A stretch of 64,000 nucleotides of DNA from an uncultured Bacilli bacterium (lineage in GTDB: Bacteria; Bacillota_I; Bacilli_A; RF39; UBA660). Location of the stretch: the NCBI GenBank assembly GCA_934129945.1, contig CAKOXC010000001.1, forward strand, positions 236,152 to 300,151. Direction: 5' to 3'. Position numbers and translations under genes: made by a program. Below, piece after piece: positions 4,110 to 47,898 of the stretch; the first letter of the stretch is position 1, and each line of letters opens with the position of its first letter. The notes below the pieces were generated by a model, which saw only the letters and a list, made by a program, of their open reading frames with translations, was not told the origin of the DNA and did not search any database.

Positions 4110-4335
4110 TACATGTTACAATACCTTTGAATTTAGCAATGAAGGAAAGAGTAAATAACATAGTTTTGTAGAGAGTTAATGGTTGGTGAAAATTAACAAA
4201 TGAAATTATTGAACATGGTTCTGGAGTTAAAACGTTTAATTCGCGTTAAGAATAAAGTGTATGAATAATTCATAAACTAAGGTGGTACCGCGGAAAATTT
4301 CCGTCCTTAGATTTATGAATTTTTTTATTAGAAAG
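4110..4335 (+). promoter_or_regulatory. T-box leader (tRNA-sensing riboswitch) with terminator/antiterminator preceding metG
   Basis: AGAGA-like box (tagagag), conserved T-box sequence aaGGTGGTACCGCGg at about 4281-4296, then a hairpin (cataaactaagg...ccttagatttatg) followed by a U-run just before the metG RBS. Confidence 0.8.
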
Positions 4336-4345: not shown

Positions 4346-5884
4346 ATGGAAAGTAAAGGAAAATATTATATAAGTACAGCTATAGCTTATACATCTGGTA
4401 AACCACATATTGGAAATACATATGAAATTGTATTAGCTGATGCTATTGCAAGATTTAAAAGATTACAAGGATATGATGTTTATTTTCAAACTGGTACTGA
4501 TGAGCATGGTGAAAAAATCGAATTAAAAGCTAAAGAAAAAGGTATAGAACCAAAACAATTTGTTGATGAAGTTTCTACAGAAATTAAAAGAATTTGGGAT
4601 ATAATGAATACTAGTTATGATAAATTTGTAAGAACTACAGATACAAATCATGAAAAAGTAGTCCAACATATTTTTAAAAGAATGTACGAACAAGGAGATA
4701 TTTATAAAAGTGAATATAAAGGATTATATTGTACTCCTTGTGAATCTTTTTGGACAGAATCTCAATTAGTAGATGGAAAATGTCCTGATTGTGGAAGAGA
4801 TGTAGAAACTAAAAGTGAAGAAGCTTATTTCTTTAAATTATCTAAATACCAAAAAAGATTAGAAGATTATATAGAATCTCATCCAGATTTTATCCAACCT
4901 GTAGCTAGAAAAAATGAAATGTTAAATAATTTTATTAAACCTGGTCTACAAGATTTATGCGTCTCAAGAACATCATTTAAATGGGGTATACCAGTAGATT
5001 TTGATTCAAAACATGTAGTATATGTATGGCTTGATGCTTTAACAAATTATATTACTAATATTGGTTATGATGTTGATAATGAATCAGATGAATTTAAAAC
5101 AAAATGGCCAGCTGATTTACATTTAATTGGAAAAGATATAATAAGATTTCATACTATTTATTGGCCATGTTTTCTAATGAGTTTAGGTCTAGAGATGCCT
5201 AAACAAGTTTTTGGTCATCCTTGGTTAATTATGGCTGATGGAAAAATGAGCAAATCTAAAGGTAATGTAGTATATGCTGATGATTTAGCAGAAGAATTTG
5301 GGGTTGATGCTGTAAGATATTATTTCTTACATGAAATTCCATTTGCATCTGATGGTGTATTTACTAAAGATCTATTAATTGAAAGAATTAATGGTGATTT
5401 AGTTAATATTTTAGGAAATTTAATAAATAGAACAGTAAGTATGAACTTTAAATATTTTGATGGTGTAATAGAAAATCCAAATATTGAAGAAGAATTAGAT
5501 AAAGACTTAAAAAATAATGTTCTTTCATTAAAATCTAAAGTAGAAAATAGAATGAATGAATTAAAAGTTGGTGAAGCAATTGAAGAAATCTTTGAAGTTC
5601 TAAGAAAATGTAATAAGTATATTGATGAAACAATGCCATGGAGTTTAGCAAAAGACGAAGATAAAAAGGATAGATTAAAAACAGTTTTATACAATTTATT
5701 AGAAAGTATTCGAATTTGTTCAGTTTTATTACAACCATTTATGCCTGAAACAAGTGAAAAAATATTTAAACAATTGAATACAACTATTTCAGATTATGAT
5801 TCAATAAATGAATTTGGTGCTTTAGAACAAGGAAAAACTTTAAATGAACCTACTCATTTATTTGATAGAATCGATACAAAATAA
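4346..5884 (+). CDS. metG: methionyl-tRNA synthetase, short form
   Basis: Class I aaRS motifs HIGN (KPHIGNTYE) and KMSKS; zinc knuckle CTPCE...CPDCG; T-box leader upstream. Confidence 0.95.
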   Translation: MESKGKYYISTAIAYTSGKPHIGNTYEIVLADAIARFKRLQGYDVYFQTGTDEHGEKIELKAKEKGIEPKQFVDEVSTEIKRIWDIMNTSYDKFVRTTDTNHEKVVQHIFKRMYEQGDIYKSEYKGLYCTPCESFWTESQLVDGKCPDCGRDVETKSEEAYFFKLSKYQKRLEDYIESHPDFIQPVARKNEMLNNFIKPGLQDLCVSRTSFKWGIPVDFDSKHVVYVWLDALTNYITNIGYDVDNESDEFKTKWPADLHLIGKDIIRFHTIYWPCFLMSLGLEMPKQVFGHPWLIMADGKMSKSKGNVVYADDLAEEFGVDAVRYYFLHEIPFASDGVFTKDLLIERINGDLVNILGNLINRTVSMNFKYFDGVIENPNIEEELDKDLKNNVLSLKSKVENRMNELKVGEAIEEIFEVLRKCNKYIDETMPWSLAKDEDKKDRLKTVLYNLLESIRICSVLLQPFMPETSEKIFKQLNTTISDYDSINEFGALEQGKTLNEPTHLFDRIDTK

Positions 5885-8111: not shown

Positions 8112-8885
8112 GTGGATATCAAAAAAGGAGATTATGTTTCAAGAAAAAGTTATAATAATGACATAATTTTTAAAGTTATAAACATTAAGAATGACGTCTA
8201 TTATTTAAAAGGCGCCGATGTTAGATTATATGCTGATAGTTTTTTAGAAGATTTGATTAAAGAAGAGATTAAAGAAAAAAAAGAAGAAATTTCCACAGAA
8301 TTACAAGATAATAATTCAGATAGAGGAGATTTTTTTTATTTGCCAGCTAAAATATTACATATAGATGGAGATAGTGAGTATTTAGATAGATGTCTAAAAT
8401 ACTATAAAAATTTAAACGTCTATGCTATTGGAAAAAAAATAAGAGAAGATAAAATTTATGAAGAAATTTATGATTTATTAGAAGAATATAAGCCTGATAT
8501 TGTTATAATTACAGGACACGATGCATTTTATAAAAAGAAAAAGGATACTACTGATATAAGGAATTATAAAAATTCATTAAATTTTGTTAATGCAGTTAAA
8601 ATGGCAAGAAAATATGAAAAATCTCATGATAAATTAGTTATAATAGCAGGGGCTTGTCAAAGTGATTATGAAGAATTAATAAAAGCGGGAGCCAATTTTG
8701 CTTCAAGTCCTAAAAGAATAAATATTCATGCCTTAGATCCAGCAATAATTGCATCATCACTTGCTTTAACCGAGCGAAATAAAGAAATTGATCTTTTAGA
8801 ATTATTAGAAAAAACAAAATATGGAAAAGATGGTATTGGTGGCCTTAAAAGTAATGGATTAATGTTTGTTGGATATCCGAGATAA
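8112..8885 (+). CDS. yabG: sporulation-specific protease YabG (peptidase U57)
   Basis: Follows ksgA and precedes veg as in Bacillus; similarity to YabG family (ITGHDAFYKKK... region); GTG start. Confidence 0.75.
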   Translation: MDIKKGDYVSRKSYNNDIIFKVINIKNDVYYLKGADVRLYADSFLEDLIKEEIKEKKEEISTELQDNNSDRGDFFYLPAKILHIDGDSEYLDRCLKYYKNLNVYAIGKKIREDKIYEEIYDLLEEYKPDIVIITGHDAFYKKKKDTTDIRNYKNSLNFVNAVKMARKYEKSHDKLVIIAGACQSDYEELIKAGANFASSPKRINIHALDPAIIASSLALTERNKEIDLLELLEKTKYGKDGIGGLKSNGLMFVGYPR

Positions 8886-8897
8886 GAAAGGAAAATT

Positions 8898-9110
8898 ATG
8901 AATATTGATGATGTGAAAACTCAAATCAAAAATAATTTATATAGTAATATAGAAATAAAAGTATATGGTATGAGAAATAAAAACTCTACTTATGTTGGAT
9001 ATATTTCTAATGTTTATCCGGCAATATTTACAGTAAGAATTAATGGTGTTGATAAAAGTTTTAATTATGTTGACGTCTTAACCGGAGAAGTTAAAATAAA
9101 ATATTATTAA
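8898..9110 (+). CDS. veg: Veg protein
   Basis: About 70 aa, YPAIFTV...V motif resembling Veg; conserved position after yabG. Confidence 0.7.
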   Translation: MNIDDVKTQIKNNLYSNIEIKVYGMRNKNSTYVGYISNVYPAIFTVRINGVDKSFNYVDVLTGEVKIKYY

Positions 9111-9179
9111 TTACTTGCAAAAATTTACACATATGATAAAATAATATTAAGTTAGAATAACTTTAGGAGGAGTGGTGTT

Positions 9180-9446
9180 ATGGAAATTACATCAGTAAAT
9201 GTACACAAAATTGAAAAAGAAGGAAAAAGAATTAAAGGTTTAGCTACAGTTGTTATCGATAATTCATTTGCAATTCATGATATTAGAATAATTGAAGGTG
9301 ATAATGGCTTATTTATAGCAATGCCAAGTAGAAAAACTCCAACTGGAGATTATAGAGATATTGCTCATCCAATTAATCCAGACGTTAGAAAAATGTTTGA
9401 AGATGCAATTTTTGAAGAATATAACAAAGAAGATGCAGAAAATTAA
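9180..9446 (+). CDS. spoVG: septation/sporulation regulator SpoVG
   Basis: MEITSVNVHKI...HDIRIIEGDNGLFIAMPSRKTPTGDYRDIAHPIN is a near-canonical SpoVG sequence. Confidence 0.95.
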   Translation: MEITSVNVHKIEKEGKRIKGLATVVIDNSFAIHDIRIIEGDNGLFIAMPSRKTPTGDYRDIAHPINPDVRKMFEDAIFEEYNKEDAEN

Positions 9447-9492
9447 ACTCATATTTATGAGTTTTTTTAATACAATTTACTAGGGTGATAAA

Positions 9493-9777
9493 ATGCAAAA
9501 TGATAATGTATTAATTGGTAACCATGAAGTAAAAATGACTGATAGAAAAACTATTTATTTGACGGGTATAAAAAAAATAGTAAGTTTTGATAATGAAGAA
9601 TTTTTAATGGAAAGTAACATGGGAGTAATTCTACTTAAAGGTGAAAGTTTAGAACTAAATAAATTAGATACTTCCGATGGAAATGTTAAAATTAAAGGAA
9701 AAATAAATAGTTTATCTTATGTTGATGGAAAAACTAAAAATAAAGATGAAGGAATATTTACTAAGTTATTTAAATAA
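9493..9777 (+). CDS. yabP: sporulation protein YabP
   Basis: 94 aa; YabP-like LTGIKKIVSFD motif; followed by a YabQ-like membrane protein and divIC. Confidence 0.8.
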   Translation: MQNDNVLIGNHEVKMTDRKTIYLTGIKKIVSFDNEEFLMESNMGVILLKGESLELNKLDTSDGNVKIKGKINSLSYVDGKTKNKDEGIFTKLFK

Positions 9778-10079
9778 TGGATAATAAATTACAAATAATA
9801 ACTTTTATATTTTCTTTTATTTATGGCTTTTCTTTCTTTTACTTAGAAGAATTAAATTATCTAATAAATAAAAAAAATAAATGTTTTATTAAATATTTAA
9901 ATAATACATTATTTATTTTAAATATGGTACTTATTTATGTTATTATAAATTATAAAATTAATAACGGTTATTTTCATATTTATTTTTTAATAACAATAGT
10001 ACTAGGTTACTTTCTTGCAAATTATACACAAAATAATGTAAAGAATTTAATTAATAAGTACAAAAAGAAAAATAAGTGA
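9777..10079 (+). CDS. yabQ: spore cortex membrane protein YabQ
   Basis: 100-aa polytopic hydrophobic protein overlapping yabP stop (ATGA); conserved yabP-yabQ-divIC order. Confidence 0.7.
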   Translation: MDNKLQIITFIFSFIYGFSFFYLEELNYLINKKNKCFIKYLNNTLFILNMVLIYVIINYKINNGYFHIYFLITIVLGYFLANYTQNNVKNLINKYKKKNK

Positions 10080-10095
10080 TATAATTGTCTAAAGA

Positions 10096-10401
10096 ATGGA
10101 TGATTATATGAAAGGTAAAATAACAAAAAAAGTAAAAAGAAGATTATTTTTTCAAACAGTATTTTTATTTGTTTTAGTTTTTGCATTAATTTTCTCTGTA
10201 TTTAATGATTGGTCAAAAATATTACAAAATAAAAGAAAAATAAATTCACTAAATAGTGAATATACTTCACTTTTAGAAAAAGAAGAATCATTAAATTCAG
10301 AAGTAACAAAATTACAAGATCCAGATTATGTTGCAAGATATGCTAGAGAAAAGTATATGTATTCGTTACCTGATGAAGTAATTATTCGTATACCAGAATA
10401 A
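10096..10401 (+). CDS. divIC: septum formation initiator DivIC/FtsB family
   Basis: Single TM then coiled coil and conserved C-terminal DPDYVARYAREKYMYS motif. Confidence 0.85.
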   Translation: MDDYMKGKITKKVKRRLFFQTVFLFVLVFALIFSVFNDWSKILQNKRKINSLNSEYTSLLEKEESLNSEVTKLQDPDYVARYAREKYMYSLPDEVIIRIPE

Positions 10402-10468
10402 GATAAACACTTTGTGTTTGTCTTTTTTCAAAAAAATGGTATAATATCAAAGCATTTTGGAGGATAAT

Positions 10469-11152
10469 ATGGAAATAATTTTACAAAATTATAATAAGAA
10501 TATTAATGGTAAAGATATTTTAAAAAATATAAATTTTAATTTTAATTGTAATATTTCTTTAATTGGAACTTCTAGTAGTGGAAAAACAACATTATTAAAA
10601 GCTTTAGAAAATGATTATAATGTTCCTAGAATTTATAAAAATTTTATGTTTTTTCATTCAACAATTGAAGAAGAAATAAAATATATTTTATTAAATACAA
10701 AACAAAAAAAGATGGTAAATGATTTACTTAAAGATATTAATTTAAGTATAAATCCTAATATGTTAAAAAATAATGATAAAATTAAATTATGCATTTTAAA
10801 AGGTATTTTAAGTAACAATAATTATGTTTCATTTGATAATATATTAACTTATCTTCCATTAAAAGAAAAAGAATATATATTAAAATATTTAAACCAAGAA
10901 CATATTAACTACATAATTGTAAGCAATGATCTGAATGATTTGTTTAATACTGATATCACATACATTTTAAATGAAGGAACAATAATCGCTAGTGGTTCTT
11001 CACAAAAAATGCTTTTAGAAGAAAAACTTTTAAAAAGACTTGGATTTACTTTACCATTCATGATTGATTTATCACTAAAATTAAAAGATTATAACTTAAT
11101 AAAAGATATTTATTTAGATAAAGAATTGTTGGTGAATAAACTATGGAAATAA
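10469..11152 (+). CDS. degenerate ABC/ECF-type ATPase-like protein (Walker A retained, signature and Walker B decayed)
   Basis: GTSSSGKTTLLKAL Walker A; no LSGGQ or DEPT; sits where ecfA lies upstream of truA; ATG 10469 follows RBS GGAGGA (track start 10457 is TTG). Confidence 0.6.
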   Translation: MEIILQNYNKNINGKDILKNINFNFNCNISLIGTSSSGKTTLLKALENDYNVPRIYKNFMFFHSTIEEEIKYILLNTKQKKMVNDLLKDINLSINPNMLKNNDKIKLCILKGILSNNNYVSFDNILTYLPLKEKEYILKYLNQEHINYIIVSNDLNDLFNTDITYILNEGTIIASGSSQKMLLEEKLLKRLGFTLPFMIDLSLKLKDYNLIKDIYLDKELLVNKLWK

Positions 11153-11757
11153 AGAAAAATAAAATAACTGCAATACTAGGTATAGATACAAATTTAAATA
11201 TTGATGAAGAAAAATTAGAATTAGATTTTTTAAAAAGTATAAAAATGATAGATTATTTAAAAAATAAATTTAATAATTTAAATGATGAAAAGATTAATGA
11301 AGCTTTAAAAATATGTTTATTAAATGAAACTGATAAACAAAAACCTCTTAATGTATTATCTTCAAATGAAATAGAAAAGTTAGAATTAGCTATAAAATTA
11401 TTAGAAAATAGAGAAATGATAATATTAAGTGATTTTGAAATAAATTTTTTAAATAGAGAATTTAATTACTTTAAGAGTTTATTTAAAAAAATGGTTACTA
11501 AATATAACAAAACAGTAGTTTTTATAACTAATAACTTAACAAAAATTATGGACATAATTGATTTTATATTAGTTGTTGAAAATAAAACAGTAGTTTTAGA
11601 ACTTAACGCTAAAAATATTTATTATGATAAAATTTATGATTATGTAGATATGCCTGAAATAATTAATTTTGTTAAACTTGCAAAAAAGAATCATGCTAAA
11701 TTAGAGGATTACACAGATATAAATGAGCTTATTAAAGGTATTTTCAGGAGTGTATAA
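11143..11757 (+). CDS. second degenerate ABC/ECF ATPase-like protein (no Walker A; LSSNE/ILSDFE relics)
   Basis: LSSNEIEKLELA and IILSDFE resemble decayed LSGGQ and Walker B; overlaps upstream gene by 10 nt; ecfA' position. Confidence 0.55.
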   Translation: MEIKKNKITAILGIDTNLNIDEEKLELDFLKSIKMIDYLKNKFNNLNDEKINEALKICLLNETDKQKPLNVLSSNEIEKLELAIKLLENREMIILSDFEINFLNREFNYFKSLFKKMVTKYNKTVVFITNNLTKIMDIIDFILVVENKTVVLELNAKNIYYDKIYDYVDMPEIINFVKLAKKNHAKLEDYTDINELIKGIFRSV

Positions 11758-12479
11758 TGAGATATTTAATTAGTATAAGTTATGATGGTTCAAAGTTTCA
11801 AGGCTTTCAAAGATTAAAGGAAAATGCAAGTGTTCAAAAAGTTATAGAGGAAGCCTTAACTAAAATAAATAAAGATAAAGTTGTTATAAAAGGTGCAGGG
11901 AGAACCGATAGAGGTGTTCATGCTTTAGACCAAAAAGCTCATTTTGATTTAAATATTAATATAACTCCTGAAGGACTTAAAAAAGCTCTAAATAGTTTAG
12001 TAAAACCTTATATCTATATAAATGATTGCAAAATAGTTGATGAAAATTTTCATGCTAGGTTTTGTGTAAAAGAAAAAGTTTATGTTTATAAAATTAATTT
12101 AGGAGAATATAATCCAATTTTAAAAGATTATGTTAATCAAAATGTTAACAATCTTGATATCAAAGCAATGAAGAAAGCTAGCAAAGTATTTTTAGGTGTT
12201 CATAATTTTAAAAACTTTGTTAGTGGTGAAAGAGATAATTATGACTGTATAATTTATAAAATTAAATTTAAAGTAGTAAATAATATTTTAGAGATTGAAT
12301 TTACAGGAAAAAGTTTTTATAGATATATGGTTAGAAATTTAGTCGGGGCATTAATCGAAGTTGGAAAGCATAAAATTAATAGTGAATATTTAGAAAATAT
12401 GTTAGAAAATTATGATACGGCTATTAACTTACCAACCTCAGATGCTTGTGGTTTATATTTAAAACAGATAAAATATTAG
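11757..12479 (+). CDS. truA: tRNA pseudouridine(38-40) synthase TruA
   Basis: ISYDGSKFQGFQRQ-type N-terminus, catalytic GAGRTDRGVHA motif. Confidence 0.93.
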   Translation: MRYLISISYDGSKFQGFQRLKENASVQKVIEEALTKINKDKVVIKGAGRTDRGVHALDQKAHFDLNINITPEGLKKALNSLVKPYIYINDCKIVDENFHARFCVKEKVYVYKINLGEYNPILKDYVNQNVNNLDIKAMKKASKVFLGVHNFKNFVSGERDNYDCIIYKIKFKVVNNILEIEFTGKSFYRYMVRNLVGALIEVGKHKINSEYLENMLENYDTAINLPTSDACGLYLKQIKY

Positions 12480-12608
12480 TGTTTTATTAGATTTTGTTTG
12501 ACTTTTAAGTAATTATCTAATATAATTTTAAATGGTACATTTTATTTTCGAAGTCTTTTAGACCCTGGGAAAGTTGAAAAAGAAATCGATTATGGAAGGA
12601 AAAAAAAT

Positions 12609-13040
12609 ATGAGTACATTTATGCAAAAAAAAGAAAATATTGAACGTAAGTGGTATGTTATTGATGCAGCTGGTCTTAATTTAGGTCGTGTTGCAACAAA
12701 AGCTGCACACATTTTGAGAGGGAAACACAAACCTACATATACTCCTCATGTTGATTGTGGAGATTATGTAATCGTTATTAATGCAGATAAAGTTAATTTA
12801 ACTGGTAATAAGTTAAATGACAAAATGTATTATAACCATAGTGGATTTCCAGGAGGCTTAAGAGAAAGAAATGCTAAAACTATGATTGAAAGCTATCCAG
12901 AAGAAATGATGGAAAGAGCTATTAAAGGAATGCTTCCTCATAATAGACTTGGTAGACAAATGGGTAAGAAACTATTTGTTTATAGAGGCGCAGATCATAA
13001 ACATGCAGCTCAAAAGCCAATAGAAATGAAAGTTGATTAG
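12609..13040 (+). CDS. rplM: 50S ribosomal protein L13
   Basis: [43 protein letters not shown] is canonical L13. Confidence 0.97.
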
Positions 13041-13050
13041 GAGGGTATTC

Positions 13051-13470
13051 ATGAGTAAGAAACAAGTTTGGACAGCAACAGGACGTAGAAAACGTTCTCA
13101 AGCTCAAGTTAGATTAACTACAGGAACTGGTAAAATTACAGTTAATGGTGTTGATGTTAACGAATATATGCCATATGCTACATTAGTTATGGATTTAAAA
13201 CAACCATTAGTTTTAACTGGTAATGACAAAAATTTAGATATTGATGTTACAGTTAAAGGTGGAGGTTTTTCAGGTCAAACTGGAGCTATTAGATTAGGAA
13301 TCACAAGAGCTTTAATAGCTTATGATGCTAATACTGATCAATCTAGTGAAGATTCTTATAGAAAAGTATTAAAAATAGCTGGTTTTGTTACAAGAGATCC
13401 TAGAGTTAAAGAACGTAAAAAACCAGGTCTTAAAAAAGCTCGTAGAGCACCACAATTCTCAAAACGTTAA
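13051..13470 (+). CDS. rpsI: 30S ribosomal protein S9
   Basis: Canonical S9 ending ...[17 protein letters not shown]; ATG at 13051 after GGAGGG (track's 13033 start is a spurious extension). Confidence 0.97.
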
Positions 13471-13490
13471 AATATACTTATTTCAATTTT

Positions 13491-13520
13491 TTCAAAAAGT
13501 CCGTATTTGCGGACTTTTTT
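13491..13520 (+). terminator. rho-independent terminator after rpsI
   Basis: aaaaGTCCGtatttgCGGACttttttg hairpin plus T-run. Confidence 0.8.
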
Positions 13521-13680
13521 GCTTGGTATATAATTCGATTTACAAGCATATCTAATAATATAAACTAAAAAATTTTTAAAAATTGTTTCATTTATGTTAT
13601 GCTTATAATATTTTTGATTAAAATGCTTGTATTTATTGATTATTATGATATAATAACTGTCCAATAAAGGAGGGTTTAAT

Positions 13681-14151
13681 ATGGTAATTAAAACTGTTCA
13701 AGAAGATATTTTTAATACTGAGGCTAAACATATTGCATTTGCTGTTAATACAGAAGGGTATAATGATTCAGGATTTGCTGGTCAAGTATCTAGTAAGTAT
13801 TGGAAAGAATTAGCTAATTGTGGTGAACATGAATTAGGAACAGTATTATCAAAAACAGTTGGAGACAAAACATTTCATGCTTTAGTTTGCCATTCATTAA
13901 ATTGCGATTGGGGTGAAAATCAAGCAGAAATAATTAAAGAGTGTTTTGATAAAATACCATCTAATGGTGAACCAGTAGCAACAATAGCAATTGGTACAGG
14001 GCCTATAGGAGTGCTAAGTGGTGCTAATTTCAGACAAATTGTATGTGGTATGCATGATTCTAATCAAAAAATTATGTTACATGCAAATTATACTTTGAAT
14101 GCTGTAATAGAATGTTATGATGAAGAAAAGGGTAAATTAAGAAGAAGATAA
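13681..14151 (+). CDS. hypothetical protein (156 aa)
   Basis: ORF with RBS aaggagg; no recognised motif; followed by a terminator. Confidence 0.5.
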   Translation: MVIKTVQEDIFNTEAKHIAFAVNTEGYNDSGFAGQVSSKYWKELANCGEHELGTVLSKTVGDKTFHALVCHSLNCDWGENQAEIIKECFDKIPSNGEPVATIAIGTGPIGVLSGANFRQIVCGMHDSNQKIMLHANYTLNAVIECYDEEKGKLRRR

Positions 14152-16858: not shown

Positions 16859-17773
16859 ATGAAAAATAAACTATTATTGATTGTAGTAGTAGTTTTAACA
16901 ATGGTTTTACTTATAGAGATAAAAACACCAAAAAAAGAAATTCAAAATAATAAAAATAACAATAATCAAGAAGAAATTAAAGTTAAAAATATAGCAACTG
17001 GTGCTATAGAGACAAAAGATTTAGAAAATTATGTAATGGGAGTGGTAGCTGCAGAAATGCCTGCCTCTTTTTCTATTGAAGCATTAAAAGCTCAAGCAAT
17101 AGCATCAAGATCTTATGCATACTATAAAATGAAGCAAAATAATGGTAATTATGATATTATTGCAGATGTTTCAAATCAAGCTTATATAAATGATGATGAA
17201 ATGCATGAAAAGTGGCAAGAAGATTATGATATTTATTATAAAAAAATAAAAGAAGCTGTTGATGGTACTAAAAATGAAGTAATGACTTATGATGGTCAAG
17301 TTATTGAAGCATTTTATTTTGCTATGAGTAATGGGTATACAGAAGATGTAGTTTCAGTTTTTGGCGAAAGTTTACCATATTTAAAAAGTGTAGAATCAAA
17401 GTGGGATAACAACAGTTTAAGTAATTATGAGGTAAATACACAGTTATCAACAGAAGAATTTTTAAAAAAATTAAATTTAAACAATAATATCATAGTTATC
17501 AACAATCAAATTTATGATGAAACAGGTAGAACAAAGGAAATAACCATAAATTCCACAACTTTTAAAGGTACAGAATTTAGAAAATTGTTAAATTTAAGGT
17601 CAACTGATTTTAAAATTGAAGTAGATAATAATATAGTTAATATAACAACTAAAGGATATGGTCACGGAGTTGGTATGAGTCAATATGGAGCAAATGGAAT
17701 GGCAAAAGATGGCTTTGATTGTTATACCATTTTAAAATATTATTATAAAGATATTGAATTTCAAAAATTATAG
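16859..17773 (+). CDS. spoIID: stage II sporulation protein D (lytic transglycosylase/amidase enhancer)
   Basis: Signal-anchor; SpoIID family signature ...YGHGVGMSQYGANGMA... Confidence 0.9.
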   Translation: MKNKLLLIVVVVLTMVLLIEIKTPKKEIQNNKNNNNQEEIKVKNIATGAIETKDLENYVMGVVAAEMPASFSIEALKAQAIASRSYAYYKMKQNNGNYDIIADVSNQAYINDDEMHEKWQEDYDIYYKKIKEAVDGTKNEVMTYDGQVIEAFYFAMSNGYTEDVVSVFGESLPYLKSVESKWDNNSLSNYEVNTQLSTEEFLKKLNLNNNIIVINNQIYDETGRTKEITINSTTFKGTEFRKLLNLRSTDFKIEVDNNIVNITTKGYGHGVGMSQYGANGMAKDGFDCYTILKYYYKDIEFQKL

Positions 17774-18456: not shown

Positions 18457-19023
18457 ATGAAAAAACAAGTTGATTGTATATTTTACTTAGTTGATAGTTA
18501 CTTATATTTATATAATTTAAAAAAAGAAGAAATAAAAAAGTATAAGTTCTCAAATTATATATATTATGGAAGAATAGTAAAAGTAAGTCAGTTTTTAAAA
18601 AAATTAAATGAAATAATTAAACAAGAAAAGATTTCAAAACTATTTACTGGTCTAAAAGCAATAGTTATTTATGAACCGTATTTACAATATAATGATAAAA
18701 AAATAATTATTGATGCTTTTGACCAGTGTGGTTTTAAAGATTTAAAATTAATAAGTACAAAACAAATTTTATCTAAAAATAAAACTTTTATAGAAATAAA
18801 TGAAAAATATTTAATTTTATACAATGAAAATAAGTACTTTCTATTTAATGTAAATAAATATTTTAGTATTGAAAATATTATTAATAAAATATTAAAAAGT
18901 ATTTCTAAAAATATATATTTAATTGGAATAAATGAAAGAATTGCAGAGTTAGTAGAGATGAACAAAAAACTATTTTACTTCGAAAATAGCAGTATATTTT
19001 ATTTAAAAAATGCAAAAAAATAA
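18457..19023 (+). CDS. hypothetical protein (188 aa)
   Basis: ORF with AT-rich codon usage consistent with neighbours; no motif recognised. Confidence 0.4.
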   Translation: MKKQVDCIFYLVDSYLYLYNLKKEEIKKYKFSNYIYYGRIVKVSQFLKKLNEIIKQEKISKLFTGLKAIVIYEPYLQYNDKKIIIDAFDQCGFKDLKLISTKQILSKNKTFIEINEKYLILYNENKYFLFNVNKYFSIENIINKILKSISKNIYLIGINERIAELVEMNKKLFYFENSSIFYLKNAKK

Positions 19024-19104
19024 TTGGCAAAAATTGTCAATTTTTTTATGGTGTGATATAATTATAGGTATGGTTAGCAAGCTGCAAATACAGGATGGTG
19101 AGTT

Positions 19105-19816
19105 TATGATTAAATTTGTTGTGGTTGAGGATGATAAATCTCAACAGGAGAAAGTTAAAGGAGTAATTGATAAAGTAAAATTTAAAACTAATGAAGAAAC
19201 GGAAACAGTATTCTTCTCTAAGTACACAAAAACATTACAAAATATTATAAAAGATGATAGTATTCATAAGATATTTATAATGGATATAGAACTTGAAAAT
19301 AATACAAGTGGTATTCAAATAGCAAAATATATTAGAGAAAATGATTGGGATAGTGAAATAATATTTACTACTAGTCATGATAAAATGTTTGAAACAGTTT
19401 ATAGGAATATTTACCAAGTATTTGATTTTATTGAAAAATATCATGATATGTCAAAAAGACTTGAAGAAGATATAAATATTATTTTAAGAAAAAACTTTGA
19501 TAACAAAATGTTAACTTATAGTAATAGATTATTTGATTTAAAAGTATACTACCGTTCTATTTTATATATTTATAGAGAAAAAGATGAAAGAAAATTAGTT
19601 ATTGTAACTGATACAAATATTTTCAAAATTGGTTTGACAATTCCAGAAATGCTAGAGTTGTTAGATGAACGTTTTAAACAATGTCATAGATCTTGTATTG
19701 TTAATGTTGATAGAGTTCAAAAATTCAATTGGAATAATAATTCTTTTTTATTAGATAACAAAGAAGAAATACCAATGCTATCTAAAAAATTTAAGAAAGA
19801 GGTGTTGGGTGAGTGA
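19105..19816 (+). CDS. AgrA-like response regulator (receiver + LytTR DNA-binding domain)
   Basis: Receiver Asp in FIMDIELEN; C-terminal LytTR region RSILYIYREKDERKLVIVTDTNIF...HRSCIVNVDRV; ATG 19105 after RBS and promoter ttgtca..tgtgatataat. Confidence 0.85.
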
Positions 19817-19818
19817 CT

Positions 19819-21099
19819 ATGGAAAGGGTAATAGAGTTTATTGCTATCTTTTTGACGTATTTTTCTTATTTAATAATGTATAAAGTACTAACGATGGAAA
19901 AAATGAAAATGAATTTAAAAAATATGATTATAATGATTGTATTCTCTTACATATCTCTTAAATTTAATGAAATAAATAATGTCTTTATAAACCTAGTTAT
20001 TTCATTAGTTATTATATTTCTTTCAATTAAATTATTTTATAAATCAGATCTTAAAAAAACGATTTTTTATACAATTTTATTAATTTTTATTACATTGATA
20101 AGTGATTCAATAACTTCTTCTTTTATTAAATATAATCATATCAGAAGTTTTGACTCATTTAGGTATAATGTTATTTTAAGATCTTTACTATCTTTTCCTG
20201 TTGTATGTATTTCTTTAATGATATGCTTAATTCCGTTTATTAAAAAAATTTCAAAGGTATTTTATAATAAATATTTTTTGAAATTAAAAGTTAATAAAGA
20301 AAGTTTATTGTGGATTACAATTTTAATAAGTACTATATTAATTATTTTTGGGTTAAATGGATATAATAGAACAAATAAAGCCAAATTTGTAATGTCTTCT
20401 TTATATATTTTTATATTTATTGTTTTATTAATTATAGCATTATATTTACTATATAAAGATTATCAAACTAAAATATTAAATAAAAACATAGTTAATGAAA
20501 ACAAATACATGAAAGATATAGCTAGACAAGAAAAGGAATTTAAACATAATTTAATTAATAATCTTTTAGGTATTAAAACAGTTGCAAGTAAAAAAGTAAA
20601 TCAATTAATTGATGAATTAATATCTGAGTATAAAACTGATTATAAAAATATTTTAAATATAAATGATTTACCAGACGGTGTTTTATCTATTATTTATCGA
20701 AAGGCATATGAAGAAAATATTGATAATTTAAATTTAGCTGTTGACAACAAAATTAAAAAAGATTTAATTGATATGTTATCACCTAAAAATTATAATAAGT
20801 TTTGTACATCAATCGGTATCTTATTTGATAATGCATTAGATGCAGTTAAGTCTTGTAAAGAAAAAATAATTGAAATTAATTTTTTAGAAGATGAAGAATA
20901 TATTTATTATATTCAAAAGAATTCTTTTAATAATGTTATTGATCTTGAACGAACTGGTACTAAAGAATATACGACTAAAAAAAGTGGTCATGGTATAGGT
21001 TTAAATTATGTAAAAAATTTAAAAAATATTGAAACTAAAAATGAAGTAATTAATAATATGTTTATTACAAAATTGAAAGTTAAAAAAATAAAAATGTAG
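19819..21099 (+). CDS. AgrC-like membrane sensor histidine kinase (HPK10 family)
   Basis: About 6-7 TM helices over first 200 aa, H-box EKEFKHNLINNLLGI, GHKL ATPase G-box KKSGHGIGLNYV; start overlaps regulator stop. Confidence 0.85.
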   Translation: MERVIEFIAIFLTYFSYLIMYKVLTMEKMKMNLKNMIIMIVFSYISLKFNEINNVFINLVISLVIIFLSIKLFYKSDLKKTIFYTILLIFITLISDSITSSFIKYNHIRSFDSFRYNVILRSLLSFPVVCISLMICLIPFIKKISKVFYNKYFLKLKVNKESLLWITILISTILIIFGLNGYNRTNKAKFVMSSLYIFIFIVLLIIALYLLYKDYQTKILNKNIVNENKYMKDIARQEKEFKHNLINNLLGIKTVASKKVNQLIDELISEYKTDYKNILNINDLPDGVLSIIYRKAYEENIDNLNLAVDNKIKKDLIDMLSPKNYNKFCTSIGILFDNALDAVKSCKEKIIEINFLEDEEYIYYIQKNSFNNVIDLERTGTKEYTTKKSGHGIGLNYVKNLKNIETKNEVINNMFITKLKVKKIKM

Positions 21100-21118
21100 G
21101 GATTTCCTACATTTTTAT
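21096..21118. terminator. bidirectional hairpin terminator between the convergent kinase gene and agrD
   Basis: TGTAGGgatttCCTACA flanked by T-runs on + and A-runs on the opposite sense. Confidence 0.6.
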
Positions 21119-21234
21119 TTTAACAATTCTCCTGGACAATCAGGTTCATCAAAAACAAGAACTATGCACCCAGTTGAAGCAGAAGCAGCAAGTATTGAAC
21201 CAATTGAAGCCATCAGACCGAAAAATAATTTCAT
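21115..21234 (-). CDS. AgrD-like autoinducing peptide precursor (39 aa; not in ORF track)
   Basis: Minus-strand ORF MKLFFGLMASIGSILAASASTGCIVLVFDEPDCPGELLK with RBS aaatggagg; amphipathic leader, central Cys, acidic tail DEP..P.EL as in staphylococcal AgrD (DEVEVPKEL); immediately downstream of agrB. Confidence 0.75.
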   Translation of the reverse strand: MKLFFGLMASIGSILAASASTGCIVLVFDEPDCPGELLK

Positions 21235-21265
21235 TTGTACCTCCATTTCTAGTCTGTTTTATTAA

Positions 21266-21871
21266 CTAATTCAAACCTTTTTTATAATTCTTATAATTAT
21301 TGAATGGTATACCAAACAATTTATAAGTTAATGGGTTTATAGAAATAATACTCATAATATAAGAAAAGAATATACAATTATTAATTAGAGAATTATTGGA
21401 TAAGAAAGGAATAAACATAAGCACTGTAGAAATAGCTACAGTTAATAATTTATCTAATACTCTTTTCTTCTTATTTATAAGTGGCTTCTTTGGAGTATCA
21501 GCTGGAGCCCATATAATGAAACAGACTAGAGCAATAATACTCATTATTAATATATAAAATTTATTAATAACATAATATTTTATTAATAAAGGAAAAGCTC
21601 CGTAGGTCAAGATTGAAGCAACCCAACAGTGTGAGCTTTTCTTTGCATGAATACCATGTGAAAATAGTCGTAAAAGTAAATAGAAAAGCATTAAAATTAT
21701 TGTTTCTTTAAATGTTTTTAGAAAAAGTGATATAAACAATATACCTAATGTTTTTGTAATTATCGTGTACAGTACTTCTAAACCATATTTGATTTTGATT
21801 TTTTCAGTATCAGTTAACTGATAATACTTAGAAACATAATTTAAATTCTTTTCAGCGAATACTTCTCTCAT
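21266..21871 (-). CDS. AgrB-family membrane peptidase/cyclase
   Basis: 201 aa polytopic; conserved catalytic His/Cys region SHGIHAKKSSHCWVASI typical of AgrB. Confidence 0.85.
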   Translation of the reverse strand: MREVFAEKNLNYVSKYYQLTDTEKIKIKYGLEVLYTIITKTLGILFISLFLKTFKETIILMLFYLLLRLFSHGIHAKKSSHCWVASILTYGAFPLLIKYYVINKFYILIMSIIALVCFIIWAPADTPKKPLINKKKRVLDKLLTVAISTVLMFIPFLSNNSLINNCIFFSYIMSIISINPLTYKLFGIPFNNYKNYKKGLN

Positions 21872-27947: not shown

Positions 27948-29126
27948 ATGAATAATTGTAATGATTATGAACGAATAAAAAAAAGAATTGAACAAGAGGG
28001 AAAAAAATATCAATATTGCTATGTGCAAGGACCAACAGGACCTCAAGGAGTTCAGGGTATTCAAGGTGTAACTGGCCCAACTGGAGCTATTGGCCCTAAA
28101 GGTGATAAAGGAGATAGAGGAACACCAGGACCAGTTAGTATCGATGTTGGTGATACAGAAACAGTGGAATCTTTTGAAGAAGCTAAAGTAGAAAATGTTG
28201 GGACAAAAGAAGATGTTATTTTGAATTTTAAAATTCCAAGAGGTAAACAAGGTATAGATGGAAATACAGGCCCACAAGGAATTCCAGGACCAAAGGGAGA
28301 AAAAGGTGAGCAAGGACCACAAGGAATAAAAGGTGAAAAAGGTGACCCGGGACCATCTACTATTCAAATTGGAAATATAGAAACAATAGGTGCTACTGAA
28401 GAAGCTGAAGTTATAAATGTTGGAACACCTGTGGATGTAGTTTTAGATTTTAAAATTCCAAAAGGTGATAAAGGAGATAAAGGAGATAAAGGAGATATTG
28501 GCCCAAGAGGCTTACCAGGAGAAATAGGAAGAACAGAACATATTGCTGTAGATGAGACTACAACTTTAGAGCCTGGAGAACCAGCAGCTGTTATGGATAC
28601 ATTTGAAAATTGGGTACATCATCTAGCCTTTTTAATTCCAAAAGGTGAAAAAGGAGAAATTGGAGAAAGAGGACCCCAAGGTCCAGCAGGTCCTCCAGGA
28701 ACAGAATTTGTGTCATCTTATGGAATTAGATATTCAATGACTGATACACAACTTAATTTACCACAAGCAACTGATACGATTATTCCATTACCTGAAAAAG
28801 GAATATCATTTTTAACAGAATATCCAGATGATAATTCTATTAAAATAAAAGAAAAAGGAATATATCTTGTATCGTATTTAATATGTGGAGCGACGAACGA
28901 AGAATGTTCTATAACGTTGTCTGTTAGAGCAAATGACATATTACAACCAGCTACAAATGTGACTAGTGAGTTTAGTGCTCAAATAATTAATAGTATAAGT
29001 GGAACTACTATTGTATCATTACAACCAAATGATCTAATAACATTAAATGTTAAACCATCTAAAACTGTTGATATAAAGTTTAATGGAAATACTAATGCAA
29101 TGTTAAATGTTACTAAAATACATTAA
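27948..29126 (+). CDS. collagen-like triple-helix repeat protein with C-terminal BclA/C1q-like globular domain
   Basis: Three G-X-Y blocks (GPQGVQGIQGVTGPTGAIGPKGDKGDRGTPGP etc.) separated by a repeated non-collagen module ending ..NFKIPRG / ..DFKIPKG / ..FLIPKG; about 130-aa C-terminal beta-rich domain. Confidence 0.75.
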   Translation: MNNCNDYERIKKRIEQEGKKYQYCYVQGPTGPQGVQGIQGVTGPTGAIGPKGDKGDRGTPGPVSIDVGDTETVESFEEAKVENVGTKEDVILNFKIPRGKQGIDGNTGPQGIPGPKGEKGEQGPQGIKGEKGDPGPSTIQIGNIETIGATEEAEVINVGTPVDVVLDFKIPKGDKGDKGDKGDIGPRGLPGEIGRTEHIAVDETTTLEPGEPAAVMDTFENWVHHLAFLIPKGEKGEIGERGPQGPAGPPGTEFVSSYGIRYSMTDTQLNLPQATDTIIPLPEKGISFLTEYPDDNSIKIKEKGIYLVSYLICGATNEECSITLSVRANDILQPATNVTSEFSAQIINSISGTTIVSLQPNDLITLNVKPSKTVDIKFNGNTNAMLNVTKIH

Positions 29127-39811: not shown

Positions 39812-40507
39812 ATGACAATAGAAAAATTATGTTTATTATTTTTACTTTTTATAACTTATTCGTTCATTGGATGGTGTATGGAAGTAGGATGTAAACTTGT
39901 TGAATTAAAAAAATTTATAAATAGAGGTTTTTTAATAGGACCTTACTGTCCGATATATGGATGGGGATGTATATTAATAATTATTTTACTTAATAAATAT
40001 ACAAATGATCCACTGGTATTATTTATAATGGCTATAGTAATATGTTCAATACTTGAATATTTTACCAGTTATTTTATGGAAAAACTATTTAAAGCTAGAT
40101 GGTGGGATTATAGTAGAAGAAAATTTAATATAAATGGTAGAATTTGTTTAGAAACAATGATACCATTCGGTTTACTTGGCTGTCTTATAATGTACTTTGT
40201 AAATCCATTCTTTGTATCAATCTATTCTAAAATACCTTCAAATATATTAATAATTATATCTTCTGTTTTATTTACTATATTTTTAACAGATAATATAATT
40301 TCATATACTATAATGTTTAAAATGAAAATACCTAAGATTAAAATATCTAAGGATAATACTGAAGAGATTACAGAATACGTTAGAAGTATACTTGCTAAAA
40401 GATCTTTTCTATATAAACGTTTAATGAAAGCTTATCCTAATATGAAAATATTAAGAAATAAAGTTATGTCAATAAACAATGATATTGATAATATAAATCA
40501 ATATTAA
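39812..40507 (+). CDS. polytopic membrane protein (CmpB/DUF1113-like)
   Basis: IGWCMEV...GPYCPIYGWG motif pair characteristic of that family. Confidence 0.5.
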   Translation: MTIEKLCLLFLLFITYSFIGWCMEVGCKLVELKKFINRGFLIGPYCPIYGWGCILIIILLNKYTNDPLVLFIMAIVICSILEYFTSYFMEKLFKARWWDYSRRKFNINGRICLETMIPFGLLGCLIMYFVNPFFVSIYSKIPSNILIIISSVLFTIFLTDNIISYTIMFKMKIPKIKISKDNTEEITEYVRSILAKRSFLYKRLMKAYPNMKILRNKVMSINNDIDNINQY

Positions 40508-44699: not shown

Positions 44700-44810
44700 A
44701 TGAATTATAATTTAATAATTAACAAAATAATTACTTTGATAATTTTTTTAAAATGTTATTTATCGATAACATTTTTTTTCTATATTCATAAACTAATATA
44801 GGTGATTATA

Positions 44811-46007
44811 ATGAGCAAGAAAATAGTCATAGATCCTGGTCATGGTGGAAGTGATCCAGGTACTTCAGCTAATGGAATAACTGAAAAAGACTACACTTTA
44901 AAAATAAGTCAATATATGAAAAAAAGATTGGATGATTTAGGAATTGAGAATTCTATTACTAGAACTGGTGATGAAACACTAGAGCCAAGTGTGAGACCAA
45001 AAAGAGTGCAAGATTTTTATGGTACTGGTAGTGATATTATAGTTGTTTCTAATCACATAAATGCAGGAGGTGCCGATGGTGCTGAAATAATTTATGCATT
45101 AAGAAACAATGATACATTACCAAGTAAAATAGCTAAAGAATTAGAAGCTGCAGGTCAAAATGTAAGAAAGTATTATCAAAGAAGGTTACCTAGTAATCCA
45201 GCAAAAGATTATTATTATATATTAAGAGATACACCTAATAATCAATCAATAATAGTCGAATATGGATTTGTAGATTCACCAGAAGATGACGTTAATCAAA
45301 TAAAAAATAACTATGAAGAATTAACTGAAGCAGTCGTAAAAGCATTAGCTGACTATGTTGGTGTTACTTACAGTCCTCCAGTTGGATCTAATACTTATGT
45401 AGTAAAAAAAGGTGATACTTTGTGGAGCATTGCTAGAAAAAATAATATTTCTGTAGACGAGTTAAAAAAATTAAATAATTTAACATCTAATTCGTTAAGT
45501 TTAAATCAAGTATTAAAGTTACCAACAAGTAATAATGACTTATCAACAACTTATACAGTAAAATCAGGAGATACATTATATAAAATAGCAAATCAATTTG
45601 GTCTTAGTGTAAATGAATTGAAAAGTATTAACAATTTATCAACAAATAATTTGTCAATCGGACAAGTTTTAAAAGTAAAAAAAGATACTAGTAATGATAA
45701 TACTACAAATGATAAATCATCGACATATACGGTTAAAAGTGGAGATACATTGTACTCAATTAGTAGAAAATTAAATGTGTCAGTCGATGAAATAAAAAGA
45801 GCAAATAATCTTACAAACAATTTATTAACAGTTGGACAAACATTACAAATACCAACAGATACAACTAAAGTTTATACAGTGAAATCAGGAGATACTCTAT
45901 ATACAATTGCAAGAAATAATAATACGACTGTTTCTGATATAATAGAATTAAACAACTTATCAACAAGTAATTTAACTATAGGTCAAAAACTGTTATTACC
46001 AAGTTAA
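44811..46007 (+). CDS. N-acetylmuramoyl-L-alanine amidase (Amidase_3) with four C-terminal LysM repeats
   Basis: IVIDPGHGGSDPG catalytic N-terminus; four YTVKSGDTLY.IA...NLS.N.L.IGQ.L LysM units. Confidence 0.9.
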   Translation: MSKKIVIDPGHGGSDPGTSANGITEKDYTLKISQYMKKRLDDLGIENSITRTGDETLEPSVRPKRVQDFYGTGSDIIVVSNHINAGGADGAEIIYALRNNDTLPSKIAKELEAAGQNVRKYYQRRLPSNPAKDYYYILRDTPNNQSIIVEYGFVDSPEDDVNQIKNNYEELTEAVVKALADYVGVTYSPPVGSNTYVVKKGDTLWSIARKNNISVDELKKLNNLTSNSLSLNQVLKLPTSNNDLSTTYTVKSGDTLYKIANQFGLSVNELKSINNLSTNNLSIGQVLKVKKDTSNDNTTNDKSSTYTVKSGDTLYSISRKLNVSVDEIKRANNLTNNLLTVGQTLQIPTDTTKVYTVKSGDTLYTIARNNNTTVSDIIELNNLSTSNLTIGQKLLLPS

Positions 46008-46060
46008 AAATTAGAGAGTTTCTGCTCTCTTTTTTAAAATAAAAAAGATGTATAAACATC

Positions 46061-46483
46061 TTAATGAAGTTCTTTGCATATTCCTGGATCTGGTATATAA
46101 AAACAATGATTTTTGTATCTTCCAGCTAAATCTTGGTTATACCATTTTTGCTTACAAGTTGAACCTCTACCTGGGGCATAAAACCATAACGAGTTAGTAG
46201 CTGGATGATAATATTCACCATTAAGTACTCTCTTAGCTAATGACTTTTCTAATGAAGTTGCTCTGCCTTCAAATAAAGAACTTTGAGTTCCAGTAAATTG
46301 ATTTTTCTGATAAATTGCATCATGAATAGATCTAACATTTTTAAATGTTAAACAATCTACTAAGGCACGATTAACAACAACATTACCAACCATTAACATT
46401 CCAAGATTTCCTTCGCCAAGTGCTTCAGCACGCATAAGTCTAGCTAAATGATCTAATTCTGTAGTAGAATAATTAATAAACAT
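46061..46483 (-). CDS. cwlJ: spore cortex-lytic hydrolase CwlJ/SleB catalytic-domain protein
   Basis: 140 aa; Hydrolase_2 motifs ARLMRAEA.GEG and GNVVVNR. Confidence 0.85.
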   Translation of the reverse strand: MFINYSTTELDHLARLMRAEALGEGNLGMLMVGNVVVNRALVDCLTFKNVRSIHDAIYQKNQFTGTQSSLFEGRATSLEKSLAKRVLNGEYYHPATNSLWFYAPGRGSTCKQKWYNQDLAGRYKNHCFYIPDPGICKELH

Positions 46484-47890: not shown

Positions 47891-47898
47891 AAGAAAGG

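Follow-up and report, generated by a model that had tools for sequence, protein, structure and literature searches.

Two consecutive genes, here designated P1 and P2, lie directly upstream of truA in a 64,000-nucleotide stretch of DNA (the window) from an uncultured Bacilli bacterium of the RF39 lineage (contig CAKOXC010000001.1, positions 236,152 to 300,151). Judged by sequence, they are orthologous to EcfA1 and EcfA2, the ATPase subunits of the group II energy-coupling factor (ECF) vitamin transporter. Both are under purifying selection and are not pseudogenes, and comparison with homologous loci indicates that their decay is not peculiar to this genome but is one stage of a clade-wide series. 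Their sequences predict no ATP hydrolysis, and predict that the pair cannot be a hydrolysing motor. The reading favoured here, to which we give about an even chance, is that P1 and P2 form a soluble, non-hydrolysing heterodimer with a role independent of the membrane subunit EcfT, in a lineage that is dismantling its ECF module stepwise.

10469..11152, + strand: P1, degenerate EcfA1 descendant of 227 amino acids (aa), with a full but shortened ATP-binding cassette (ABC) nucleotide-binding fold and ECF-type C-terminal helices.
11143..11757, + strand: P2, truncated EcfA2 descendant of 204 aa, which overlaps P1 by 10 nt and whose stop codon overlaps the truA start.

Family assignments were obtained from hidden Markov model (HMM) searches. 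The best NCBIfam model for P1 was TIGR04520 (ECF_ATPase_1), at 51.8 bits against an equivalog cut-off of 315, and the best for P2 was TIGR04521 (ECF_ATPase_2), at 32.9 bits against a cut-off of 330, neither cut-off being reached. In Pfam, P1 yielded sub-threshold P-loop matches only, with PF00005 (ABC_tran) at 18.3 bits over the Walker A stretch alone (gathering threshold 25), and P2 had no Pfam match, PF00005 included. A search of PDB sequences aligned the last 130 residues of P1 to Lactobacillus delbrueckii EcfA1, C-terminal helices included (8bmr_A, E=1.2e-8). The AlphaFold (AF2) model of P1 (pLDDT 92, pTM 0.84) had EcfA1 (8bms_A, TMq 0.80) as its top Foldseek match, and that of P2 (pLDDT 81, pTM 0.74) matched CbiO (4mki_B) and EcfA2 (7nnu_B and 8bms_B) best. 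The ABC nucleotide-binding fold, a RecA-like core with a helical subdomain, was recovered for both, with more than 1000 PDB ABC domains matching the models at E<=1e-3. In P2 this fold is N-terminally truncated: alignment to full-length EcfA2 showed about 70 N-terminal residues, Walker A among them, replaced by about 25, and a profile search placed P2 residues 25-204 or so opposite residues 80-275 or so of relatives of 250-280 aa.

Descent from some other P-loop family, for instance from defence-system ATPases or from soluble translation factors of the ABC-F type, is very improbable. P1 does show weak matches to AAA_28, AAA_21 and BrxF, PDB sequence matches of P1/P2 include the ABC-F proteins ExpZ (2e-8) and Lmo0919 (3e-3), and the genes sit beside truA-rplM-rpsI. 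However, ECF ATPases are the best family and fold matches, a continuous series of homologues leads to canonical ecfA1-ecfA2-ecfT at the same locus, and neither an ABC-F linker nor an ABC-F arm is present. A defence-system ATPase was rejected, PADLOC having returned only trivial P-loop matches below a meaningful level. Descent from an ABC-F or other translation factor was likewise rejected, as ECF families score higher than the weak ABC-F matches and synteny contradicts such an origin.

The state of each catalytic motif was mapped by aligning P1 and P2 to near-canonical relatives, including those at loci L027 and L039 (L numbers denote related loci).

10565..10588, + strand: P1 Walker A, GTSSSGKT, residues 33-40, intact; G33, S37, G38, K39 and T40 are invariant or nearly so in 86 homologues.
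10628..10654, + strand: P1 Q-loop/Q-helix region, RIYKNFMFF, with no Q-loop Gln and no X-P-D/E-X-Q-phi in the alignment to L027 and L039.
10763..10780, + strand: P1 degenerate signature, LKNNDK, at the position of canonical LSGGQ.
10823..10840, + strand: P1 Walker B, YVSFDN; the invariant Asp123 is kept and the catalytic Glu is replaced by Asn124.
10913..10933, + strand: P1 H-loop region, IIVSNDL, with the His replaced by an invariant Asn153.
11012..11149, + strand: P1 C-terminal helices, residues 182-227, the ECF group II dimerisation element, aligning to the EcfA1 C-terminus of 8bmr_A; regional conservation 0.88.
11356..11370, + strand: P2 vestigial signature, LSSNE, residues 72-76; L72, S73 and E76 are invariant in the family.
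11416..11439, + strand: P2 Walker B-like strand, MIILSDFE, with Ser96 at the Asp position and Asp97 at the catalytic Glu position.

P1 thus carries a Walker A scored against GxxGxGK[ST] as present, together with the A-loop aromatic (Y8). In P2 both the Walker A region and the Q-loop/Q-helix region, which reads LVFQFPEDQF in near-canonical relatives, are deleted. Neither protein has a consensus LSGGQ (LKNND in P1; LSSNE in P2, where only L, S and the last position are conserved). The H-loop His position of P2 is also an Asn, and the full set of Walker B Asp, catalytic Glu and H-loop His is absent from both proteins. The C-terminal helices, which serve A-A' dimerisation in group II ECF modules (PMC6828968), form the most conserved region of the P1 family, the P-loop and Asp123 also being among its best-conserved parts.

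The first-pass annotation of this DNA had described a first gene that kept only a Walker A and a second that kept only ghost signature and Walker B positions, with no Q-loop or H-loop in either. Its description of P2, and the loss of both loops, were borne out by these motifs. For P1 the intact Walker A stood, but the protein also retains Y8, the Asp of Walker B and C-terminal helices of the ECF type. The HMM and structure-prediction tests that it proposed gave the two ECF ATPase models as best, far under cut-off, and an ABC fold devoid of catalytic residues in both proteins, with EcfA1, EcfA2 and CbiO closest. No non-ABC family outscored these assignments in Pfam or PADLOC, and its suggestion of non-catalytic proteins is supported by motif states and folds alike.

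In order to place the pair in its clade, an A1-anchored scan (A1 and A2 being the EcfA1- and EcfA2-type genes of a locus) was performed with one genome per species and yielded 80 loci, or 81 distinct loci with the window. Since a set anchored on A1 is biased to retention, a truA-anchored scan of metagenome contigs was also run and gave 59 loci in which the sequence upstream extends for 1.3 kb or more. Overall, 140 related loci were available from uncultured, apparently RF39-like gut Bacilli. The 80 scan loci all come from metagenome-assembled genomes (MAGs) of uncultured gut organisms labelled Bacilli, Tenericutes or Erysipelotrichaceae, apart from a few whose labels are evidently wrong, and include Ca. 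Coprovivens (L029), Clostridium sp. CAG:1000 and Mycoplasma sp. CAG:956. Ca. Coprovivens, the only locus for which a GTDB placement has been published, belongs to RF39/CAG-1000 (PMC8035907), and for this reason the clade is termed RF39-like and an assignment to GTDB order RFN20 was rejected. A Bacilli-type locus was also observed in MAGs deposited as 'uncultured Muribaculaceae bacterium' or 'Bacteroides helcogenes' (L006, L008, L020, L022, L080 and others), records that probably reflect mislabelled taxonomy or binning contamination.

The loci form an ordered series from near-canonical ecfA1-ecfA2-ecfT through motif decay and EcfT loss to truncation of EcfA2 and EcfA1. Near-canonical Type I loci (L039, L041 and L060, and L027 with Gln for the A1 His) encode A1, A2 and a 250-aa EcfT, and their A2 has GxxGSGKT, a Q-loop, LSGGE or a near variant, DE and the H-loop His. 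Degenerate Type I loci (L003-type) still have EcfT, with the A2 Walker A and A1 signature decayed; the same two motifs are decayed in Type I' (L042-type), where a shortened EcfT of about 219 aa is still homologous (hhalign 97.7%). Type II loci have degenerate full-length A1 and A2 and no EcfT, A2 abutting truA. Type III, which comprises the window, L004-L012, L014, L028 and L054, has an A1 of 227-245 aa, an A2 of 200-212 aa and divIC directly 5' of the A1 gene. Finally, Type IV loci encode an A1 of about 150-160 aa without a P-loop and an A2 of 182-194 aa. ECF_ATPase_1 scores of the first gene fall along the series from 259 bits (L027) through 139 (L003), 101 (L056) and 52 (window) to 46 (L046); ECF_ATPase_2 scores of the second gene are 314, 131, 80, 33 and 35 bits at the same loci. 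Throughout, ECF_ATPase_1 is the best-fitting model for the first gene and ECF_ATPase_2 for the second, and the gene order A1-A2-(T)-truA-rplM-rpsI is constant.

Retention of the pair was universal in both sets. The two genes are kept in 81/81 distinct A1-anchored loci, window included, and an A2 homologue lies directly 5' of truA or EcfT in 59/59 truA-anchored loci, with A1 before A2 wherever sequence reaches; no case of complete loss of the pair was found in these 59 loci. EcfT was present in 31/59 of them and absent from 28/59. Its presence or absence requires six changes on a neighbour-joining tree of TruA and RplM (5-7 in 30 bootstraps, the tree being rough), and A1 motif signatures independently group EcfT-containing and EcfT-less loci in the same subclades. 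A P2 profile searched against 1.84 billion representative proteins gave only 1052 matches at E<=1e-3, which grade continuously from short forms (180-215 aa) to long ones (250-280 aa). Two reports describe related lineages as having reduced genomes with stepwise losses of other functions (PMC10868615; PMC12306168, citing Nayfach 2019).

Selection was evaluated by Nei-Gojobori estimates of the ratio of nonsynonymous to synonymous substitution rates (dN/dS, or omega) between the window and its two closest species, L004 and L005.

P1: dN/dS 0.16 against L004, 0.16 against L005.
P2: dN/dS 0.11 against L004, 0.14 against L005.
truA: dN/dS 0.04 against L004, 0.11 against L005.
divIC: dN/dS 0.06 against L004, 0.13 against L005.

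P1 and P2 diverge about as fast as TruA. Homologues of P1 (about 35, at 53-98% identity) are all 223-233 aa and those of P2 (about 45, at 52-97% identity) all 195-206 aa; a precomputed PF00005 match was attached to no short-form homologue of either P1 (P0001-P0036) or P2. Close species pairs gave dN/dS of 0.12-0.13 in L003-type (Type I), 0.02-0.03 in Type I', 0.01-0.07 in Type II and 0.11-0.22 in Type IV loci, values that resemble truA of the same pairs, and EcfT where present gave 0.06-0.28. No frameshifted or stop-containing copy of P1 or P2 occurred among the 140 related loci. P1 and P2 are therefore not pseudogenes, since dN/dS is low and the open reading frames (ORFs) are intact in all related loci. 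These results answer the dN/dS test that the first-pass annotation had proposed and agree with its view that the genes look retained and not freshly pseudogenised. We give practically no credence to plain, recently inactivated ecfA/ecfA' pseudogenes. Canonical motifs are indeed missing, and Pfam and NCBIfam scores lie under cut-off; however, lengths are constant and ORFs intact in every related locus down to 52-53% identity, dN/dS is well below 1 (0.01-0.22 in close pairs) and the predicted folds are confident. Intact ORFs, low dN/dS and folds together rule out fresh pseudogenes.

The membrane subunit is missing from the operon. P2 abuts truA with no gene for EcfT (CbiQ family) between them, and, consistent with the absence of EcfT already noted in the first pass, two EcfT HMMs run against the window in all six reading frames found no EcfT-like ORF. 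None was found within about 8 kb on either side of 42 EcfT-less loci of the genome-contig set. Pfam detected no S-component and no EcfT among the multi-pass membrane proteins of the window, which are AgrB, a histidine kinase, Yip1, CmpB, MFS, TraX, TrbL and MMPL proteins. In group II modules the Q-helix X-P-D/E-X-Q-phi and its groove dock EcfT (PMC6828968), and this docking motif is missing from both P1 and P2. In relatives the gene 3' of A2 is EcfT, its family profile matching PDB 4hzu_T at E=4e-43. The L003 protein (L003:7600-8346) reaches Pfam CbiQ only at E=0.21, below cut-off, its identity having come from the family profile against PDB, and L003-type EcfT is under purifying selection (omega 0.16-0.28). 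L003-type EcfT proteins, from relatives in which the A subunits no longer have a Q-helix, fall below the CbiQ cut-off and lack the Arg of their coupling-helix motifs (in L003, for instance, NIFAFF and IKG, against LRFIP and SRG in L027), and in L003-type loci both sides of the interface, the A-subunit Q-helix and the EcfT coupling motifs, appear to have decayed together. Among the matches listed in a homologue search of the EcfT family (at least 120), none was recognisably from the SIG197 MAG (locus tags E7158_), an outcome that is neutral as to an EcfT gene there. As a separate observation, the window encodes a 231-aa, five-transmembrane (TM) ABC_trans_CmpB protein ('putative ABC-transporter type IV', E=5e-52) at 39812-40507, 29 kb from P1/P2 and with no adjacent ATPase gene.

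P1 and P2 could still be the cytoplasmic part of an ECF transporter, docking on EcfT and S-components encoded elsewhere and working by ATP binding alone or by very slow hydrolysis. Group II S-components are normally scattered over the genome, and the EcfT search covered the 64-kb window and flanks of at most 10 kb in relatives. The P-loop and Walker B Asp of P1 are conserved, and the selected EcfT beside degenerate A subunits (L003- and L042-type, omega 0.06-0.28) indicates that a degenerate module can remain a membrane complex. Nevertheless, we consider this unlikely. No EcfT-like ORF was recovered in the areas searched. P1 no longer has the Q-helix and acidic groove that bind the coupling helices of EcfT, and in P2 they have been deleted. 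Besides the Q-loop, one entire ATP site is missing, as are the catalytic Glu and the H-loop His. Furthermore, EcfT left the operon at least five times on the rough tree, and repeated relocation is less parsimonious than loss.

The pattern of motif loss forms the basis of a proposed mechanism for the soluble heterodimer. In an ABC dimer each ATP site consists of the Walker A side of one subunit and the signature of the other. In most lineages, including the window, A1 retains its Walker A and A2 its LSxxE, and the A2 Walker A and A1 signature are lost. A group that includes Clostridium sp. CAG:1000 (L061, L079, L080 and L081) kept the opposite ATP site: its A1 Walker A (GNNN--DLI) and A2 signature (LTVVD) are lost, and its A2 still has a Walker A (GASNSGKT) and the Walker B DE. 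Because the retained motifs are complementary, and a mirror image in that group, these losses suggest that each lineage preserves one composite nucleotide-binding site. P1 and P2 would still heterodimerise through their C-terminal helices, leaving as sole vestigial nucleotide site the Tyr8, Walker A and Asp123 of P1 facing the P2 LSSNE in a head-to-tail dimer. The Asn of P1 at the catalytic Glu position would be a natural counterpart of the E-to-Q trapping mutation, with the H-loop His also an Asn. Such a site is predicted to bind ATP as a structural or sensing ligand, binding without turnover being expected because the remaining site of the window has no Glu, His or Gln. As the Q-helix groove is gone from both proteins and the operon has no EcfT, the dimer is in all likelihood a soluble one that is no longer coupled to transport, and S-components would no longer be driven. 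Our best guess at its role is nucleotide-dependent scaffolding or regulation inherited from an ancestral EcfAA' dimer.

Several points weigh against this heterodimer. Type IV relatives are conserved even though the A1 P-loop is wholly lost, and nucleotide binding is thus not essential to the minimal function. Progressive shrinkage of both proteins across the clade fits weakened constraint, as does GC content at first and second codon positions (GC1 and GC2), which is lowest in P1/P2 among soluble neighbours and hints at a somewhat weaker amino-acid constraint. The last 45 or so residues of the P2 model have low confidence, in a C-terminus that aligns to that of canonical EcfA2. Heterodimerisation, ATP binding and solubility are predictions from sequence and fold, the EcfT-independent function and its partners are put forward as a best guess, and EcfT and S-components may be encoded beyond the 64-kb window and the flanks of up to 10 kb in relatives.

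A further alternative concerns the junctions of the locus, for which the following features are relevant.

10096..10401, + strand: divIC (septum formation initiator; Pfam DivIC E=3.3e-17), immediate 5' neighbour of P1.
10418..10445, + strand: promoter-like TTGTCT-16 nt-TATAAT with an extended -10 TG, 10/12 in a consensus scan, in the 67-nt divIC-P1 spacer.
10459..10464, + strand: Shine-Dalgarno GGAGGA of P1, read in the sequence, overlapping the TTG of the mechanical ORF call.
11757..12479, + strand: truA (tRNA pseudouridine synthase A; Pfam PseudoU_synth_1 E=2.8e-29), with a TAATG junction to P2.

P1 and P2 might be a vestigial translated spacer without any function of its own, kept open and foldable only because truA expression needs transcription and translational coupling across it, and slowly whittled by deletions, a reading that we regard as fairly unlikely. 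The junctions are tight, with the 10-nt P1/P2 overlap (ATGGAAATAA) found again in most related loci, TAATG at P2/truA and the AGGAG ribosome-binding site of truA inside the last P2 codons. P1 and P2 are apparently co-translated with truA, and truA is apparently translationally coupled to P2. The site at 10418..10445 is a putative promoter of a P1-P2-truA transcript, only its position being suggestive, as promoter-like matches are no rarer than chance predicts in DNA this AT-rich. Across the clade A1 shortens monotonically from 278 through 227 to 157 aa and A2 from 282 through 204 to 182 aa, GC1 and GC2 are low as noted above, and the P-loop itself is dispensable in Type IV. Against a spacer, dN/dS of 0.01-0.2 is similar to truA and far stronger than an open frame demands, and the P-loop, D123, N153, LSxxE and C-terminal helices are invariant over about 50% sequence divergence. 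Moreover, in the SIG197 MAG a soluble 213-aa ORF (L001:6709-7350, the same as L007:8688-9344), with no Pfam or PADLOC match to its protein, lies between the P1 and P2 orthologues; the overlap is broken and both neighbours are intact, indicating that P1-P2 coupling is not obligatory.

The remaining features of the locus lie further downstream.

12498..12526, + strand: promoter-like TTGACT-17 nt-TATAAT upstream of rplM, with 11/12 consensus matches.
12609..13470, + strand: rplM (12609-13040) and rpsI (true start ATG 13051, end 13470), called as ORFs, with Ribosomal_L13 and Ribosomal_S9 Pfam labels on orthologues.

The site at 12498..12526 suggests that rplM-rpsI transcription can be independent of P1-P2-truA; the rpsI ATG at 13051 is preceded by AGGAGG. 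No intrinsic terminator-like site was found across 8800-13800, and an Rfam search at gathering thresholds detected neither an L13 leader nor any other RNA near the P1/P2 locus. truA-rplM-rpsI is a conserved block 3' of ECF genes, and the whole same-strand run reads mfd, spoVT-like, T-box, metG, tatD, ksgA, yabG, veg, spoVG, yabP, yabQ, divIC, P1, P2, truA, rplM, rpsI. ORFs of more than 200 codons cannot arise by chance in DNA of 18% GC, the window as a whole being about 25% GC. Third-position GC (GC3) of P1/P2 is 0.10-0.11 and equals that of their neighbours, and the genes are therefore native. Earlier claims of intact ORFs coupled by a 10-nt overlap, of codon usage like that of the neighbours, and of a block joined directly to the spoVT...divIC cluster all agree with the frames, the GC3 values and the gene order. 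The two short ORFs, called at 231 and 204 aa, are both on the + strand as described, and only the length of the first was revised: P1 starts at ATG 10469 and has 227 aa, because GGAGGA precedes this ATG and homologues are 223-233 aa, the closest 227 aa, the TTG of the 231-aa ORF falling within the ribosome-binding site.

Other features of the window were recorded. A T-box leader (4130-4311, 117 bits) lies directly 5' of metG (4346-5884). An agr-like quorum-sensing module (19010-21871) contains a LytTR response regulator (19010-19816), a GHKL histidine kinase with six TM segments (19813-21099) and, on the opposite strand to these, AgrB (21266-21871). Spore-related genes at 27948-29126, 16859-17773 and 44802-46483 encode a BclA-like collagen-repeat exosporium protein, SpoIID, a LysM amidase and a SleB-like hydrolase, to which yabG, yabP and yabQ near P1/P2 add further spore genes in a 25% GC, apparently small-genome lineage. 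These spore genes fit the mixed sporulation phenotypes reported for RF39-type orders (PMC10868615). A tRNA-Trp gene (46795-46868) is followed by conjugative-element genes to the window end, and 46795-64000 looks like an integrative conjugative element beside a tRNA gene. Its genes include an N6/N4 DNA methylase (49160-49903), a SpaA/thioester-domain surface protein (51679-54177), a sortase (54134-54799), TrbL_4 (54860-56164), a VirB4/TraG-like P-loop ATPase (58529-60808) and an M23 peptidase (60808-61473).

In Firmicutes and Mollicutes, ECF modules are regarded as indispensable motors of vitamin uptake and as targets for antibiotics. A large uncultured gut clade has here dismantled the motor, catalytic residues first, the membrane subunit next (at least five changes) and parts of the ATPases last, and the remnant is still selected. 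If the remnant has its own function, EcfAA' has a cellular activity that nobody has assayed; if it has none, the locus is an unusually clear case of an operon shedding a complex while protecting downstream expression. It is possible, if on balance doubtful, that the EcfA1-EcfA2 dimer has a role that needs neither EcfT, S-components nor ATP hydrolysis, maybe an ancestral moonlighting one. Such a role could explain the persistent linkage of ecfAA' to truA-rplM-rpsI in Firmicutes, and the gut-Bacilli series would then be a natural deletion experiment in which the core is the C-terminal half of each subunit with the dimerisation helices. Current pipelines call genes of the P1/P2 type 'hypothetical' or 'ABC multidrug ATPase', which on either view would be a misannotation, and metabolic reconstructions of RF39-like genomes should not infer ECF-type vitamin uptake from them.

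P1 and P2 are ECF ATPases turned conserved pseudo-ATPases, and in the literature searched no earlier description of an EcfT-less, catalytically disabled EcfA pair was found. The closest known systems are group II EcfA1/EcfA2 of L. delbrueckii ECF-FolT (PDB 5jsz, 8bms) and L. brevis (4huq), which P1/P2 resemble in best HMM and fold matches, in gene order upstream of truA-rplM-rpsI and in the ECF C-terminal dimerisation helices. In contrast to these, P1/P2 have no Q-loop, Q-helix, H-loop His or catalytic Glu, the signature is lost in P1 and the Walker A region of about 70 residues in P2, no EcfT lies in the operon, and scores fall 6-10 times under family cut-offs. Engineered ABC proteins with an amide for the catalytic Glu can bind ATP and close the dimer without hydrolysis. 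The E-to-Q trapped ECF module (8bms, a solitary ECF module 2EQ in the ATP-bound closed state) provided the top structural match of P1, whose Asn is likewise an amide at the Glu position, but the mutant keeps all other motifs and EcfT, which P1/P2 do not, and ATP binding by P1 is only predicted.

Heterodimeric ABC proteins with one degenerate site (TM287/288, CFTR, TAP1/2, BmrCD) are similarly asymmetric, one site of P1/P2 having no Walker A and no partner signature. Near-canonical L027 and L041 are already asymmetric: their A2 site is of consensus type, but in the degenerate A1 site Asp replaces the catalytic Glu, the Gln of the Q-loop has been lost and the His is either kept or a Gln. Those heterodimers keep one competent site, whereas P1/P2 have lost the consensus site and their remaining site has neither Glu nor His. 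The likeness to soluble ABC ATPases outside transport (ABC-F, ABCE1, SufC) is a functional analogy only, that of an ABC fold without a membrane domain, with weak sequence matches to ABC-F; those proteins are active, with both sites intact and family-specific insertions, and shared descent is evident only at the level of the ABC superfamily. Finally, plant ABCI11 is, like P1/P2, an ECF-related A subunit without the Q-helix glutamine, a loss argued to block normal docking of a T subunit, although it is a chloroplast protein of another lineage and keeps all nucleotide-binding motifs (PMC6828968).

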